A stretch of DNA of 64,000 nucleotides from a virus (lineage: Duplodnaviria > Heunggongvirae > Uroviricota > Caudoviricetes), in the IMG/VR virus record IMGVR_UViG_3300031994_000001, positions 247,799 through 311,798 of that record; one strand, 5' to 3'. The first letter of the stretch is position 1. Every line of letters begins with the position of its first letter. The notes below the pieces were generated by a model. The model was not told where the DNA came from and ran no database searches. It saw only the letters and a program-made list of their open reading frames with translations. Shown piece by piece: positions 2,640 to 53,310 of the stretch. Position numbers and translations under genes: made by a program.

Positions 2640-3127
2640 CAGAGGACGACAAAAAACTTCTATTAAAAGACCTATCAGCGAGATTGCCGTACAATGTGAA
2701 AGTCTTGTGCAGTTACTATGACGACACAGATGACACAGAACCGACAGTAAAAACATTCACTCTCACCGAAATAAACACGGAGAACGGCAATCACCCATAT
2801 TGGATAGGTGGCGAACAGTTGCAGGATAGCGGTTTTTCCAACGGCACTACGTCTTTCGCCGTGAATATAGACGATGACTTGCAATACATCAAGCCGTACC
2901 TGCGACCAATCACAAGCATAACGGGGAACGAGGAGCGGGAAATAAGAAATTTCTTCAGAAAGTGTATTGACGATTTACACGGAAAATCAAGCGAGGAACA
3001 ATTTTTTCTTGGTTTTTGCCAAGACGCGGAATCACTTGACTATCTCAATATGCACCATTTAGATTATCGCGGTCTGATTGGGATGGGGTTGGCAATCGAA
3101 GCCCCCGAAGGAATGTATGAAATCTAA
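2636..3127 (+). CDS. Array paralog 6
   Basis: DLSARLPY, KPYLRP, DYLNMHHLDYRGLI. Confidence 0.9.
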   Translation: MTEDDKKLLLKDLSARLPYNVKVLCSYYDDTDDTEPTVKTFTLTEINTENGNHPYWIGGEQLQDSGFSNGTTSFAVNIDDDLQYIKPYLRPITSITGNEEREIRNFFRKCIDDLHGKSSEEQFFLGFCQDAESLDYLNMHHLDYRGLIGMGLAIEAPEGMYEI

Positions 3128-3131
3128 TGTT

Positions 3132-3335
3132 ATGACAAAGAACGAATTACACAGACTGATGAAGTTGCTTTCCTACAAGGAACAGCACAAGGATATTTTG
3201 AAAAAACTGCACAACGATGCACAGATAATCTACGATGGGTTTGCCACAGAGGGATTGGTTACAATCTATGAAATGTGCAGTGACGAATGCAAAGACAAAT
3301 TGGTTTCCATTCTATTGGAGACAATTCAACAATAA
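3132..3335 (+). CDS. Hypothetical cargo protein
   Basis: ATG 3132 just after paralog 6 stop; fills gap. Confidence 0.6.
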   Translation: MTKNELHRLMKLLSYKEQHKDILKKLHNDAQIIYDGFATEGLVTIYEMCSDECKDKLVSILLETIQQ

Positions 3336-3346
3336 AACATACAGTT

Positions 3347-3802
3347 ATGACAGAACAAGAAAAAGAATTGCTTATTAAAAATTATTGCGCGAGACTTCCT
3401 TACGGGTTGAAACTGAATTTCTACGCACGCGCAACAAACGAAAACGTGTTATGCACGCTGTTGGGTATCGAACCCGAAAGCGACAAACCCATAATCGCCA
3501 AAACGGACAACGGGTCGTTCACATTCACGCAAGACCACGTTAAGCCATACCTGCGCCCGCTCTCAACTATGAAGCAGGAAGAGTGTGACGAATGGGGTGA
3601 AATAATATATCAACCGTTAATAAAACTCGAACAATATGATTATGAAGGGCTTGGTGTGGAACGCGCACCATATTGCTTCGCGGAAAGTAACGCCAACGCT
3701 TTTGAATGGATGCTCAAAAAACAATTTGATTACGACCATTTAATCGAAAAAGGTCTCGCGCTCGAAGCCCCAGAAGGAATGTATGAACATAAAAGCGAAT
3801 AG
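3347..3802 (+). CDS. Array paralog 7 (start ATG 3347)
   Basis: YCARLPYG, KPYLRP, FDYDHLIEKGLALEAPEGMY. Confidence 0.9.
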   Translation: MTEQEKELLIKNYCARLPYGLKLNFYARATNENVLCTLLGIEPESDKPIIAKTDNGSFTFTQDHVKPYLRPLSTMKQEECDEWGEIIYQPLIKLEQYDYEGLGVERAPYCFAESNANAFEWMLKKQFDYDHLIEKGLALEAPEGMYEHKSE

Positions 3803-3804
3803 TT

Positions 3805-4407
3805 ATGACGCAAGAAGATAAAAAACTGTTGTTGACTGACATCTGCGCACGATTGCCATACGGATTGATGTTCGCCCTTTGGAACGATTACCGCAAAGAG
3901 TTCTGTTGGGAAGTGCAAGTTAGCGGATTGGAATACGCGAACGCAAAACCTATTTTCGTATTCGACAAACCATCTTATCGAAAACACGGCATAGAAACAA
4001 TCAAGCCATACCTGCGCCGCATATCGTCTATGATTGACGATGAAAAATCGGAGTACGCTAACTTTTGGAGTTATGACGAATATGACGAAGCCATACTCAC
4101 ACCCGAAGACGCTGTACGCTGCGGCGATTGGCTTGACGCTCATTTCTTCGACTATCGCGGACTGCTCGAAAAAGGATTGGCACTCGAAGCACCGAGCGGA
4201 ATGTATGCTGCCTTGAACAAAGAAACGCATACCCCGATGACCGTTGAGGAAGCAAAGGCGTTCATTCGTCAGCACAATGTGGTGCATCCGAGGTGCAGGC
4301 AATGCAAGGAAAGTTTCTGTGACGGCTGTGCCGAGATTGTTGACAGAGAACTCGTGAACGATGTCATAAGCGGCAAGATAAACGAAATCAACTGTTTTGA
4401 ATTTTAA
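3805..4407 (+). CDS. Array paralog 8 with C-terminal CxxC-x4-CxxC extension
   Basis: Family blocks plus HPRCRQCKESFCDGC tail. Confidence 0.9.
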   Translation: MTQEDKKLLLTDICARLPYGLMFALWNDYRKEFCWEVQVSGLEYANAKPIFVFDKPSYRKHGIETIKPYLRRISSMIDDEKSEYANFWSYDEYDEAILTPEDAVRCGDWLDAHFFDYRGLLEKGLALEAPSGMYAALNKETHTPMTVEEAKAFIRQHNVVHPRCRQCKESFCDGCAEIVDRELVNDVISGKINEINCFEF

Positions 4408-49773: not shown

Positions 49774-51198
49774 ATGAGTTACTTATTCACTTCGGAATCC
49801 GTATCAGAAGGGCATCCCGACAAAATGTGCGACCAAATATCGGACGCTTTATTGGATGCTTATCTAACCCAAGACCCCGATTCAAGGGTCGCTTGCGAAA
49901 CGCTCGTCACACGCGGTCTTGTTGTGTGCGCGGGAGAAGTAAGCAACAATGAACTCGAACCCATACACATTGACGATATAGTCAGAAACACCATTGCTGA
50001 AATCGGCTACACGAAAAGCGAGTATGAGTTCGACAGCAAATCCTGCGGCGTAATCACAGCAATACACCAACAGTCTCCCGACATCGCACGCGGTGTCGTT
50101 GGACGCATATGCACCGAATTGCAAGGCGCAGGAGACCAAGGCATTATGTTCGGATATGCTTGCAATGAGACGGAAAACTATATGCCTATCACGTTGGAAC
50201 TCGCCAATATGCTTATGCGTGAATTGGCTGCAATCCGAAAGGAAGGCAAGGAAATGACCTACCTGCGACCCGATTCAAAAGCGCAGGTGACAGTAATGTA
50301 TTCCGATGACGGAAAGCCGCTGTGTATAAACACCATTGTTCTGTCAACGCAGCACGACCCATTCAGCGATGGTGACAACGCTATGCAGGAACAAATTGAG
50401 AACGATGTACGCGAAATACTGATACCGAGAGTTGTCAGCAAACTCCCCGAAAAGTCACAGAAACTGTTTGACGAAGATTTCAAACTGTTAGTGAATCCAA
50501 CGGGGAGGTTTGTCCTTGGCGGGCCGAGCGGGGACACGGGACTCACGGGTCGCAAGATAATCGTTGACACCTACGGCGGACACGGTGCGCACGGGGGCGG
50601 CGCGTTCAGCGGAAAAGACCCGTCAAAGGTTGACCGTTCCGCAGCATACGCGGCACGCTATATCGCCAAGAATATCGTTGCGGCAGGACTGTGTGACCGC
50701 TGCCTTGTGCAAATTGCATACGCAATTGGATGTACGTACCCAGTCGGTTTCTATATCAACACATTCGGCACTCTGAAATTTAAAATGAGTGACGGAGAGT
50801 TCGCCAAAAGAATACGGGAATTGGTACATTTGAGACCATATGACATCATTGAGAAATTCCAACTCAAAAACCCGATTTACAAAGCGACTGCCACATACGG
50901 ACACTTCGGCAGGACACCGTATAAAAAAACCGTTGAGGTTCACTATCGTGACAAGTTCACATACAAAGACCCGAAAAGCGGAAAGTATGTCAAGGAAATA
51001 ACGTTCTTCCCGTGGGAGGAACTTGACCTAATCCCCGAACTGCAAAAGGTGTTCTGCTGTGACAACTGCGAAAAGTTCAAAGTTGTAGTTCCAGACAGTG
51101 CAAAGGATATACATATACGCCACTGCTCCGAACTGCGAATCAATCTATGTGAAAGGACAAAACCCTGCAAATACTTCAAGATAAAAGATGTGTTTTAA
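49774..51198 (+). CDS. metK: S-adenosylmethionine synthetase with Cys-rich C-terminal extension
   Basis: FTSESVSEGHPDK, GAGDQG, DTGLTGRKIIVDTYGG, GGGAFSGKD. Confidence 0.95.
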   Translation: MSYLFTSESVSEGHPDKMCDQISDALLDAYLTQDPDSRVACETLVTRGLVVCAGEVSNNELEPIHIDDIVRNTIAEIGYTKSEYEFDSKSCGVITAIHQQSPDIARGVVGRICTELQGAGDQGIMFGYACNETENYMPITLELANMLMRELAAIRKEGKEMTYLRPDSKAQVTVMYSDDGKPLCINTIVLSTQHDPFSDGDNAMQEQIENDVREILIPRVVSKLPEKSQKLFDEDFKLLVNPTGRFVLGGPSGDTGLTGRKIIVDTYGGHGAHGGGAFSGKDPSKVDRSAAYAARYIAKNIVAAGLCDRCLVQIAYAIGCTYPVGFYINTFGTLKFKMSDGEFAKRIRELVHLRPYDIIEKFQLKNPIYKATATYGHFGRTPYKKTVEVHYRDKFTYKDPKSGKYVKEITFFPWEELDLIPELQKVFCCDNCEKFKVVVPDSAKDIHIRHCSELRINLCERTKPCKYFKIKDVF

Positions 51199-51227
51199 CG
51201 CATCGATTGTTTTTCCATAATAATGCG

Positions 51228-51315
51228 AAAGCCGTGCCAAAAGCACGGCTTTTTTAGTCTCATATATAAGTTATACATAACAAAAGCAAAGGGAGCGTTA
51301 AAAAACGCCCCCTTT
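51228..51315. terminator. Two hairpin terminators between convergent metK and helicase
   Basis: AAAGCCGTGC-CAAAA-GCACGGCTTTTTT and AAAGGGAGCGTT...AACGCCCCCTTT. Confidence 0.7.
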
Positions 51316-51330
51316 GCACTACGTTCAACT

Positions 51331-52551
51331 TTACCAAAGGTTGTGTTCAACCTCGTTCATATTTTCCTCCGTATTCGGTCTTATACCCGCGTTAGGTCGG
51401 AGATGCCTCATACCCAACCTTGAATCCACATCGGCAAGTTCAATAGCCTCATCGGAGTTCTCTCGGTATATTCTGAATGCGTCCTTTATGCGCATTTTCT
51501 TGTACTCAATATCCATTTCCATTTTCGTATTCTTGCCTTCGCCGTCCCTTATCTTCAGAATCTTCAACAGATATTTGTCGTTGGTACGCATATCGGAGTT
51601 CTGTATGATACCGAACATTGTGTCGCAGGTGTGCAGCAAGCCCGAAGATTCGGCAATATTGCCTATTGTTATGTCATCGCTGTCAAACGCGCCTCTGTTG
51701 GTCTGTGTGGCTGTCACGATAAGGCATTCCTGCCGCACGGCGATTGCACGCAAATCCTCTGAAATCTGCTTTATCTTGTTATACAAATCCTCGGAGTTGA
51801 GATTTCGGTAGTTCGCCATAATATTGATATAGTCAATCACCACCACGTCAACCTTGAACCCAAGGACTTCTTGGATTGTCTTGATATAGTTTTCAACATC
51901 AATGGTCGTACAGCAGGAAGTAGGGTATTCCTTGATAAACAGCCTGCCCATAGGGATATGCTGATTCCTGCGAGCCTCCGCCAACCGCTCGCCTATGAAA
52001 TTGGCATCCTTTGAAAGTTTGTCGTATTCGTCAATGCTTATGTCAAGCAGGTTAGCACCCATACGCTTGATTACCTTCTTGGCACTCATCTCGCAAGTTA
52101 TGAACAGCACGTTCTTTCCGTTCCTAACGAAGTTCACAGCATCATTACAAAGGAATATACTGTTGTGGCAGAGGAATCCGTTTACATAGTATCTGTGTTC
52201 GTCAGTACCGACTTCAATGTCATACATATTTTCGCATTCACCCGTCTGTTCAACATCAACAACAAGTTCAACACCGTCCTCCGTCTGTATATGGTCGGGG
52301 CGACTGTCTTTGTTGAGGTCTTTGGCAAACACCTCATCGTATTCAGTATCGAAGAAAATATGCGTGTCAGCGCAGCGTATGCTCTTGCCTCTGTCGGTCT
52401 TTACATTGTAAACATCGTATGGTACTGTCTTTCCTATCGCTTTGATTGGAGCATATCCTTTGTCAGTAAGCACTTCCCAATCCTCAAGGTCAAAAACTTT
52501 TTCAAATTTCTTTTCATTCATATTAGTCGTATTGCTATTGTGATAGTTCAT
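51331..52551 (-). CDS. Split intein C-fragment fused to C-terminal half of gp41/DnaB-like replicative helicase (start 52551 or 52521)
   Basis: Intein CADTH (block B), MYDIEV (F), YYVNGFLCHN|S (G); then VLFITCEMS, VVIDY, TATQTNR, AES, K.RDG helicase motifs; Walker A GK absent. Confidence 0.9.
   Translation of the reverse strand: MNYHNSNTTNMNEKKFEKVFDLEDWEVLTDKGYAPIKAIGKTVPYDVYNVKTDRGKSIRCADTHIFFDTEYDEVFAKDLNKDSRPDHIQTEDGVELVVDVEQTGECENMYDIEVGTDEHRYYVNGFLCHNSIFLCNDAVNFVRNGKNVLFITCEMSAKKVIKRMGANLLDISIDEYDKLSKDANFIGERLAEARRNQHIPMGRLFIKEYPTSCCTTIDVENYIKTIQEVLGFKVDVVVIDYINIMANYRNLNSEDLYNKIKQISEDLRAIAVRQECLIVTATQTNRGAFDSDDITIGNIAESSGLLHTCDTMFGIIQNSDMRTNDKYLLKILKIRDGEGKNTKMEMDIEYKKMRIKDAFRIYRENSDEAIELADVDSRLGMRHLRPNAGIRPNTEENMNEVEHNLW
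52162..52521 (-). other. Atypically split intein C-fragment (~120 aa)
   Basis: No block A/Cys1 in this ORF; contains blocks B, F, G; ends His-Asn before Ser+1 at 52159-52161. Confidence 0.85.
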
Positions 52552-52581
52552 TTTTATAAATATAATAAATTTTGGAAAAAA

Positions 52582-52701
52582 ATGTTTGCCGAAGACGAAT
52601 ATGGTGAATGCAGCGAGTGCGAGTGCGGCGGTTGCCCGTACTATCCGAACTGCGATGGTTGCCCCGTAAGAACGGCAAGCGATTCAGATTCAAACAACTA
52701 A
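52582..52701 (+). CDS. Tiny Cys-rich acidic peptide (39 aa)
   Basis: MFAEDEYGECSECECGGCPYYPNCDGCPVR... Confidence 0.45.
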   Translation: MFAEDEYGECSECECGGCPYYPNCDGCPVRTASDSDSNN

Positions 52702-52712
52702 AACCGAACAAT

Positions 52713-53279
52713 ATGTCAAAAAAACTGAAAGCGTACAAACTGAAAGACACCCTTCCGTACAACTTGAAAAACGAGAAGGCTTTAAGTAACTATGTATCAG
52801 AACTTGCAGACAATATGTCTGCGTGCAAGGACAAATTCATAGCCCTTGCCATATCAGTACCGAATGACATCTGCCCCAAAACAACAAACGACCCGATTTC
52901 CTATGTCGCTAATATGGCAGACACATACCTCAACAATTTCAACTCGAACATAGACTGCTATTCCCAATGTGTCATAATCAACGAATGCACTACACGGGAA
53001 TACACACCCACAAACATTGAATTTGTCGTATCAAGCGAAATCGAAACATACAAAGAGGCTGAAAAGGCATTGGCTGAACTTGTTATGCGTGAAAGCGACA
53101 CGATAAACAAACTGAAGGCTCTGTTCTATGCCACGCCCAACACCATAGTCGGCGGCAACATAAGCCCGTTTGAATACGTCATAGGAAAAACGGCAGAATA
53201 TTTTGACGAACTGCTTGACATCCACGAGCAGATAACCTCCATATCGCTTCTTGTTGACAACCTATGCCTGCAAGAATAA
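52713..53279 (+). CDS. Hypothetical protein (start ATG 52713)
   Basis: Long ORF; looks like two internally similar halves. Confidence 0.7.
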   Translation: MSKKLKAYKLKDTLPYNLKNEKALSNYVSELADNMSACKDKFIALAISVPNDICPKTTNDPISYVANMADTYLNNFNSNIDCYSQCVIINECTTREYTPTNIEFVVSSEIETYKEAEKALAELVMRESDTINKLKALFYATPNTIVGGNISPFEYVIGKTAEYFDELLDIHEQITSISLLVDNLCLQE

Positions 53280-53310
53280 AAGAGAATAAAGGAGAATAAA
53301 GAAGAATAAA
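53273..53310 (+). repeat. 4 x AGAATAAA with 10-bp period
   Basis: Copies at 53273, 53283, 53293, 53303. Confidence 0.8.

Follow-up and report, generated by a model that had tools for sequence, protein, structure and literature searches.

A replicative helicase of a huge phage predicted to be joined from the products of two distant genes by an atypically split intein

The C-terminal half of a replicative helicase was identified in the window, i.e., the stretch of 64,000 nucleotides that was analysed (coordinates such as 51331-52551 are in window numbering), which is part of a record of 413,021 bp for a phage of ruminant guts (IMG/VR IMGVR_UViG_3300031994_000001). Together with an N-terminal half that is encoded 74.6 kb away in the same genome, it very probably makes up one helicase, the two parts of which would be joined by a class-1 intein that is naturally split at an atypical, N-proximal position. 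This supports the interpretation of an earlier note on this DNA, and trans-splicing between the products of distant genes is predicted. The features of both halves (C-half and N-half, carrying the intein pieces IntC and IntN, respectively) were as follows:

51331..52551, minus strand: C-half gene including the stop codon, with IntC at aa 1-130 and the helicase C-extein at aa 131-406 (ORF, Pfam, PHROG 19)
52162..52551, minus strand: IntC, 130 aa from Met1, or 120 aa if Met11 (52519-52521) is the start (family alignment, profile matches to solved inteins)
52360..52374, minus strand: block B, C60-A-D-T-H64 (sequence; Cys60, Ala61, Asp62, and His64 invariant in the family)
52162..52227, minus strand: blocks F and G, M109..D111..H119..N124..H129-N130 with the terminal Asn (alignment)
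52159..52161, minus strand: Ser+1 codon at the Walker A Ser/Thr position, GxxxxGK/S, the slash marking the splice site (in-silico splice junction, alignment to 8dtp)
51331..52158, minus strand: remainder of the C-extein, i.e., the RecA-like helicase core after Walker A, and the stop codon (profile match to T4 gp41, 8dtp)
51286..51317, minus strand: intrinsic terminator directly 3' of the stop codon (14-pair stem with 8 GC pairs, T tail)
52552..52583, no strand: divergent intergenic region, AT-rich, 32 nt (sequence)
G000:C1:374980-375678 of the phage genome, minus strand (same strand as the C-half): N-half gene, 232 aa, with the helicase N-extein and IntN (PHROG 19, IntN profile)

The C-half ORF was intact and comprised 406 aa. 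It had previously been placed at 51331-52578; the ORF is real, but the gene's strand does not code in the 27 nt past the start codon (52552-52578), and a small divergent ORF begins on the opposite strand at 52584. Met11 could be the true start, which would leave an IntC of 120 aa as in close relatives. The terminator (51317-51286) was graded strong. Two putative motifs were located in the intergenic region, TTTATTATA on the minus strand 10 nt 5' of the C-half ATG (58 occurrences in the whole genome), and TATAAATA on the plus strand, facing the small ORF. A scan for the sigma-70 consensus gave no minus-strand promoter upstream of the C-half, and the claim that the gene has its own promoter motif was thus not upheld; no motif common to the upstream regions of the C-half and of the N-half operon was seen by eye. 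The flanking genes were unrelated to the helicase, as had been stated before, the neighbours being a SAM synthetase gene and ORFs of unknown function, and neither an endonuclease domain nor an endonuclease gene was present in or beside the C-half ORF.

The small divergent ORF (52584-52703, plus strand) encodes a Cys-rich protein of 39 aa with 9 Cys and the motifs C-x-x-C-x-C-x-x-C and C-x-x-C; its ATG lies 23 nt downstream of TATAAATA, and an in-frame deletion of 6 nt at 52613 was present in the goat and pig strains. The SAM synthetase-like gene (49774-51198, plus strand, 474 aa) carries a Cys-rich C-terminal extension of ~75 aa, for which we know of no counterpart in cellular MetK.

The intein region at the start of the C-half, described before as about 120 aa with blocks B, F, and G and lacking block A, was confirmed as 130 aa counted from Met1, and block A with Cys1 was absent from the C-half ORF. 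Block F reads M109-Y-D111-I-E-V and is followed by H119, and Ser131 stands directly after the end of block G (H129-N130). Across 26 C-half homologues (49-87% identity to the query), the residues C60, A61, D62, H64, M109, D111, N124, H129, N130, and S131 were invariant, the catalytic ones among them (H64, D111, H129, N130, and S131) over a range of 49-93% identity, and H119 was present in the window IntC and in the family consensus, with another residue in its place in some aligned members. While the block B His (His64) is thus invariant, Ala stands in CADTH where the canonical TxxH has Thr, which is a point against activity. At the equivalent place, VidaL has CAFNH, and this intein was reported as splicing-active (PMC13014065).

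The Pfam model Intein_splicing covered the C-half at profile positions 24-88 and 121-155 of 155 only and scored 25.4 bits against a gathering threshold of 35.8. This is expected because the C-half holds only a piece of the intein, and membership was hence based on family profiles and PDB matches. The IntC family profile matched the solved inteins VidaL (6vgv, E 5e-8), gp41-1 (6qaz), CatC (6dsl_B, E 2.2e-5), and NrdJ-1, and within the 413-kb genome it hit the C-half ORF alone (E 9e-61; second-ranked ORF 0.46), which places the assignment of the C-half far beyond chance. In the AlphaFold2 model of the isolated C-half, confidence was moderate overall and low in block G (pLDDT 40-52); a poorly defined block G is expected where the IntN is missing, and is not proof.

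Ser+1 had been described as leading into the sequence that follows Walker A in replicative helicases, and three profile comparisons, all beginning after Walker A, agreed with this. DnaB_C matched the C-half from profile position 37 of 255 (E 9.7e-15), PHROG 19 (DnaB-like helicase) matched from position 367 of 621 through 582 (E 1.5e-51), and the family profile matched T4 gp41 (8dtp) at chain residues 203-461 (E 2e-52), with Ser131 aligned to Ser204 of the latter (K203-S204 in ...GK-S-L-G-L-C...).

A partner gene coding for a helicase N-half that ends in ...GK-C plus an IntN of 15-40 aa had been predicted, and its absence from the genome had been named as evidence to the contrary. Such a gene was found in the same genome at G000:C1:374980-375678. 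Its product consists of a 196-aa N-extein ending in ...C-Y-V-G-Q-S-N-I-G-K and a 36-aa IntN, which begins with C-V-C-A-E-S-E-I and runs to the stop codon. The block A nucleophile Cys1 (Cys197 of the N-half) stands directly after the N-extein and was invariant in an alignment of 27 N-halves (homologues with 32-93% identity to the query). A single ORF of the genome was matched by the IntN family profile (E 1.6e-19; all others > 0.4). AlphaFold2 modelled the N-half with a helical N-domain at residues 7-141 (pLDDT about 86-91 over 11-130) and the IntN with strands at 203-207 and 214-218 and a helix at 219-227, followed by five residues and the stop. In this model, the split falls after helix alpha1, as in S2-type inteins, and not directly after strand beta2. 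The sizes are likewise those of an atypical split, with block A only in the 36-aa IntN and block B in the 130-aa IntC. Since the IntN of known atypically split inteins spans 15-37 aa (PMC13014065), 36 aa is at the long end of the range, and the proposal of the earlier note that this intein is a new tool candidate was not supported as written.

The N-half gene is flanked by a recA-like gene upstream and an SbcD-like gene downstream and sits in a tightly packed cluster of recombination and replication genes. A search of the genome with PHROG 19 gave three matches, namely the C-half (367-582), the N-half (162-366), and a weak third one, which is the P-loop of the recA-like gene beside the N-half (E 6.3e-4). 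DnaB_C passed its cut-off once in the genome, the other match being again the recA-like P-loop (E 0.04). The helicase formed from both halves is, judging from these searches, the genome's only DnaB/gp41-type replicative helicase. An additional helicase on unsampled DNA is unlikely because the record, which is classed linear, is 100% complete according to CheckV.

Joining of both exteins in silico yielded a helicase of 472 aa with the junction GQSNIGK/SIFLCNDA, which restores a regular Walker A motif (GQSNIGKS); the joined protein is colinear with both T4 gp41 and the intein-free orthologues. The PHROG 19 ranges of the halves (162-366 and 367-582) abut across the junction, and only after in-silico splicing was the full set of gp41/DnaB features present, i.e., a helical N-terminal domain and a RecA-like core with an intact Walker A. 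This junction was compared with three kinds of homologues. The nearest GenBank phages, in which the helicase gene is uninterrupted, were the huge phages LR756500-LR756504 and Prevotella Lak megaphages; the intein-free orthologue of LR756500.1 (435-aa ORF) reads ...GQSGIGKSIWLCNDA..., with GQSGIGKSIW at the junction. Among 80 IMG/VR loci encoding the N-domain, 76 were contiguous and intein-free, reading ...GK/SI[FWY]LAND, and four ended 34-36 aa past GK/C. The third comparison was with P0193, a contiguous homologue of 615 aa that comprises helicase plus intein. The concatenated N-half and C-half aligned to it with 39% identity over 585 aa (E 4e-147) and with no gap at the break, which lies in the linker after the first intein helix. 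By these three independent comparisons (GenBank phages, IMG/VR orthologues, and P0193), the predicted junction is correct.

In the proposed mechanism, the helicase is broken inside Walker A (GQSNIGK/S), and the N-half product would be supplied from the gene 74.6 kb away. The 36-aa IntN (a beta hairpin and one helix) would dock on the partly folded 130-aa IntC and thereby complete the HINT fold. Cys1 would then form a thioester to be attacked by Ser+1, cyclisation of Asn130 would free the intein pieces, and an O-to-N shift would leave a normal Lys196-Ser peptide bond, the product being the 472-aa helicase with an intact P-loop. We infer that splicing occurs and is required for ATPase and helicase activity. 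Separate transcription of the halves followed by trans-splicing might, in addition, time or gate helicase assembly and thereby place the onset of replication under a post-translational checkpoint. This idea derives from the position of the N-half in the replication cluster and from the C-half being monocistronic, with its own terminator, in a metabolic-gene setting, and in contexts that differ among relatives; it is considered unlikely. Contigs from a sheep-gut RNA library were 100% identical to segments of the C-half gene, which is only a hint of transcription, carried-over DNA being possible.

Three other readings of the two genes were weighed. That the split is an artefact of assembly or gene calling, the real gene being contiguous or the contig a chimera of two phages, might be suspected of a metagenomic assembly classed linear, and reads showing a contiguous cis-intein gene had been named as counter-evidence. 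The assembly around 52500-52700 was compared with contigs from gut runs of other studies (pig 7.6 kb, cattle 3.9 kb, goat 2.6 kb). The pig and cattle contigs cover 50900-53300 and the goat contig reaches 52871, all without a joint, so that these independent assemblies rule out an assembly artefact. Furthermore, the top 119 homologue clusters begin at the same place, 45 N-half homologues are encoded by short ORFs that match the N-half in length, all 26 aligned N-half homologues end 30-45 aa past GK/C, and a second genome (93% complete) carries both halves 157 kb apart. An artefact thus has virtually no chance of being the explanation. DNA nearly identical to 50900-53300 was also seen in sheep, goat, pig, and cattle gut runs of at least eight studies, which indicates that the phage lineage is widespread in livestock.

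Very unlikely, too, is a state of decay, in which a selfish element broke the helicase gene, both pieces lost their function, and replication relies on the host DnaB or another phage helicase. Against this, both ORFs are intact, their catalytic residues are invariant across many clusters, and the variants listed inside the C-half gene among the goat, pig, and cattle assemblies were synonymous in 20 of 20 cases (six of these in the IntC), i.e., 20 synonymous to 0 non-synonymous between independent assemblies, a pattern of purifying selection on the C-half gene. The dispersed state has also been retained across a clade, one member of which is a 388-kb phage with an IntC identity of 53%. What speaks for decay is that splicing is a prediction, that the halves are distant and in unrelated contexts, and that a large genome has room for unrecognised helicases; against the last point, no second DnaB_C domain passed the cut-off in the genome. 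It is highly improbable that the intein pieces are a dimerisation device only, holding together a two-chain helicase without covalent splicing. Although fragments of split inteins are generally known to associate tightly ahead of the chemistry, the break lies between the Walker A Lys and Ser, and an unspliced complex would hence retain ~166 intein residues inside its P-loop; moreover, Cys1, the penultimate His, the terminal Asn, and Ser+1 are invariant, though needed only for the chemistry. Trans-splicing of the two products into one helicase is therefore the preferred reading.

The occurrence of the intein family was surveyed with the C-half, for which 2224 homologues were found, with an N-terminal IntC in 119 of the 120 best clusters. 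A search with the IntC only gave 278 IMG/VR loci as well as 1406 representative proteins at 50% clustering (675 at E <= 1e-10). Among the best 150 representatives, the IntC starts within the first ~50 residues in most (split) and is internal in ~25 (contiguous). Short-N/long-C inteins had been called rare in the earlier note, which does not hold for the relatives of the window IntC, these being abundant in phage metagenomes. Host proteins of the family, with the insertion site after GK, include the helicase, SbcC/gp46-like proteins, TerL, and other ATPases.

Further split or contiguous inteins were recorded at other loci. One relative (IMG/VR 3300036670_000250; L097, L099, L100; 70 kb) carries three atypically split inteins of the family, one each in the helicase (adjacent halves), TerL (where a nuclease-like ORF precedes the C-half), and an SbcC/gp46-like ATPase. 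A TerL homologue of 613 aa (P0186) is interrupted by two contiguous inteins, which follow the Walker A GK and the Walker B D-E, respectively. At L161, L166, L171, and L109 (at 6251), the IntC family is fused to other C-exteins, one of which starts with T-L-I-A-K-K-L-A (about 251 aa, possibly a clamp-loader-type ATPase) and another with T-A-K-T-F-A-M-L (about 331 aa). In the cultured Vibrio phage vB_VmeM-32 (L015, KU160494.1), an unannotated fractured helicase was found at 1029-1727, 1830-2966, and 2938-4104, comprising an N-half (...AGVN/C and a 27-aa IntN), a 378-aa ORF, and a C-half with an IntC ending in HHN/TGKS. Its intein site is three residues upstream of that of the window phage; the annotation gives a HintC domain to a neighbouring 'RecA-like' fragment, which is flanked by a gene for a SegG-like nuclease.

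Helicase arrangements were read in IMG/VR records. Adjacent halves, 145-443 bp apart, were found at L106, L111, and L164, and halves with one gene between them (gap 1.2-2.1 kb) at L098, L104, L109, L113, L140, and L149. The intervening ORF, scanned in L098 and L140 only, matched PHROG 3339 'homing endonuclease' (E 1.7e-5) and PHROG 22677, weak matches that suggest a nuclease. Dispersed halves occur in a genome of 387,654 bp (93% complete), with the N-half at 166.8 kb and the C-half at 324.5 kb, i.e., 157 kb apart, and an IntC with 53% identity to that of the window phage. In the closest relatives of the window phage, the contigs that carry the N-half (106-192 kb) lacked the C-half. In a tree of the C-exteins (quick search with a long-branch warning), the dispersed halves and those with no partner nearby formed one clade (support 100), and the adjacent and nuclease-bearing alleles were scattered among intein-free ones with at least five changes, which is the pattern of a mobile element.

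Where the helicase of relatives is unsplit or its halves are adjacent, a small ORF and then an SbcD-like gene follow downstream, in the same order as at the N-half of the window phage; homology between the small ORFs after the helicase locus in the window genome and in a relative (G003) was not demonstrated (BLASTP E 0.12). The neighbours of the C-half vary among relatives. From gene order (recA-like gene upstream, SbcD-like gene downstream), the N-half appears to be at the ancestral position, and the C-half therefore appears to be the relocated piece. The arrangement differs from that of a fractured gene, in which adjacent halves enclose a free-standing nuclease gene, as the halves are 74.6 kb apart with a nuclease beside neither of them.

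This state likely goes back to a contiguous mini-intein at the same site. A free-standing homing-endonuclease gene, of the kind still carried by some relatives, probably caused the break in the loop that follows the first intein helix. In the lineage of the window phage, loss of the nuclease gene and relocation of the C-half from the ancestral locus would then have taken place. The series agrees with the gene-breaking model of Dassa et al. 2009 (PMC2677866), with nuclease loss and rearrangement as later steps.

Atypically split inteins and fractured gp41 helicases are already established (PMC13014065, PMC10189870, PMC11766414, PMC2677866). What is specific to the window phage is a separation of 75 kb within a complete megaphage genome, together with the evolutionary series in which it stands; in a search of the accessible literature, no paper linking split inteins with huge phages was found. 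The phage provides a complete natural case in which the only replicative helicase of a huge phage is predicted to depend on trans-splicing across 75 kb (157 kb in a relative). At this one site, the intein is absent in some genomes and contiguous in others, and where it is split, the halves enclose a nuclease gene, are adjacent, or are dispersed; this series documents the origin of fractured genes and their subsequent decay into dispersed split genes. The family also holds hundreds of natural short-IntN pairs of the Cys1/Ser+1 type that could be screened for use in protein engineering. In current annotation, such half-genes are unlabelled or mislabelled (e.g., as 'KaiC/RecA-like ATPase'), or unannotated as in Vibrio phage vB_VmeM-32.

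Compared with known systems, the intein resembles AceL-TerL, GOS-TerL, and the consensus Cat-TerL in architecture, with a short IntN holding block A only, a long IntC with blocks B, F, and G, a split after the first helix, and insertion in the P-loop of a phage ATPase; the sequence of CatC (structure PDB 6dsl) is related according to the profile match given above, and relatives of the window phage bear the same intein family in TerL. These inteins have an S2 split after alpha1 with an IntN of 25-37 aa and an IntC of ~104 aa (PMC13014065, PMC11766414). In contrast to AceL-TerL and GOS-TerL, the host protein in the window phage is the replicative helicase instead of the terminase, the halves are 75 kb apart, and the catalytic pair is Cys1/Ser+1 instead of Cys/Cys (AceL) or Ser/Cys (GOS) (PMC13014065, PMC11766414).

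Among solved inteins, VidaL was the best match and has the block B pattern C-A-x-x-H, an H-R-Y-Y motif, and Ser at +1 in common with the window intein, at low sequence identity. Its full name, VidaL T4Lh-1, presumably denotes a T4-like helicase as host. VidaL (PDB 6vgv, 6vgw) differs in its IntN of 16 aa and S1 split after strand beta2 (PMC13014065), against 36 aa and an S2-like split in the window phage.

As in the fractured gp41 genes, a phage gp41-type helicase is encoded by two genes, and relatives of the window phage show both nuclease-bearing and nuclease-free states. In gp41-1 to -7, the split is the canonical one, which leaves the IntN long. Dassa et al. 2009 described gp41-1 to gp41-9 as split inteins of such genes, usually with a free-standing nuclease gene between the halves (the gp41-7 locus being without one), and gp41-1 to -7 occupy another site, position 356 of P-SSM2 gp41 (PMC2677866). 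Unlike in these loci, the halves of the window phage are non-adjacent, with a nuclease gene at neither.

With the Ssp and Npu DnaE inteins, the window phage shares an essential replication enzyme that is encoded by two genes at separate loci and completed, as predicted here, by trans-splicing. Among inteins whose halves lie at separate loci, that of cyanobacterial DnaE is the classic case, and it is canonically split, with an IntN of about 100-120 aa, in the polymerase of a cellular host. The intein of the window phage, by contrast, is atypically split and lies in a phage helicase. Broken DnaE genes in separate loci of cyanobacteria were also treated by Dassa et al. (PMC2677866).

PolB16 OarG, an atypically split intein mined from a sheep gut metagenome (PMC10189870), comes from the same kind of habitat as the window phage and is likewise hosted by a phage-type replication enzyme. 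It matched the family profile of the window intein weakly (E 1.4e-3) and differs from it in its 15-aa IntN (S1), its cysteine-independent Ser1/Ser+1 chemistry, and its location in PolB.
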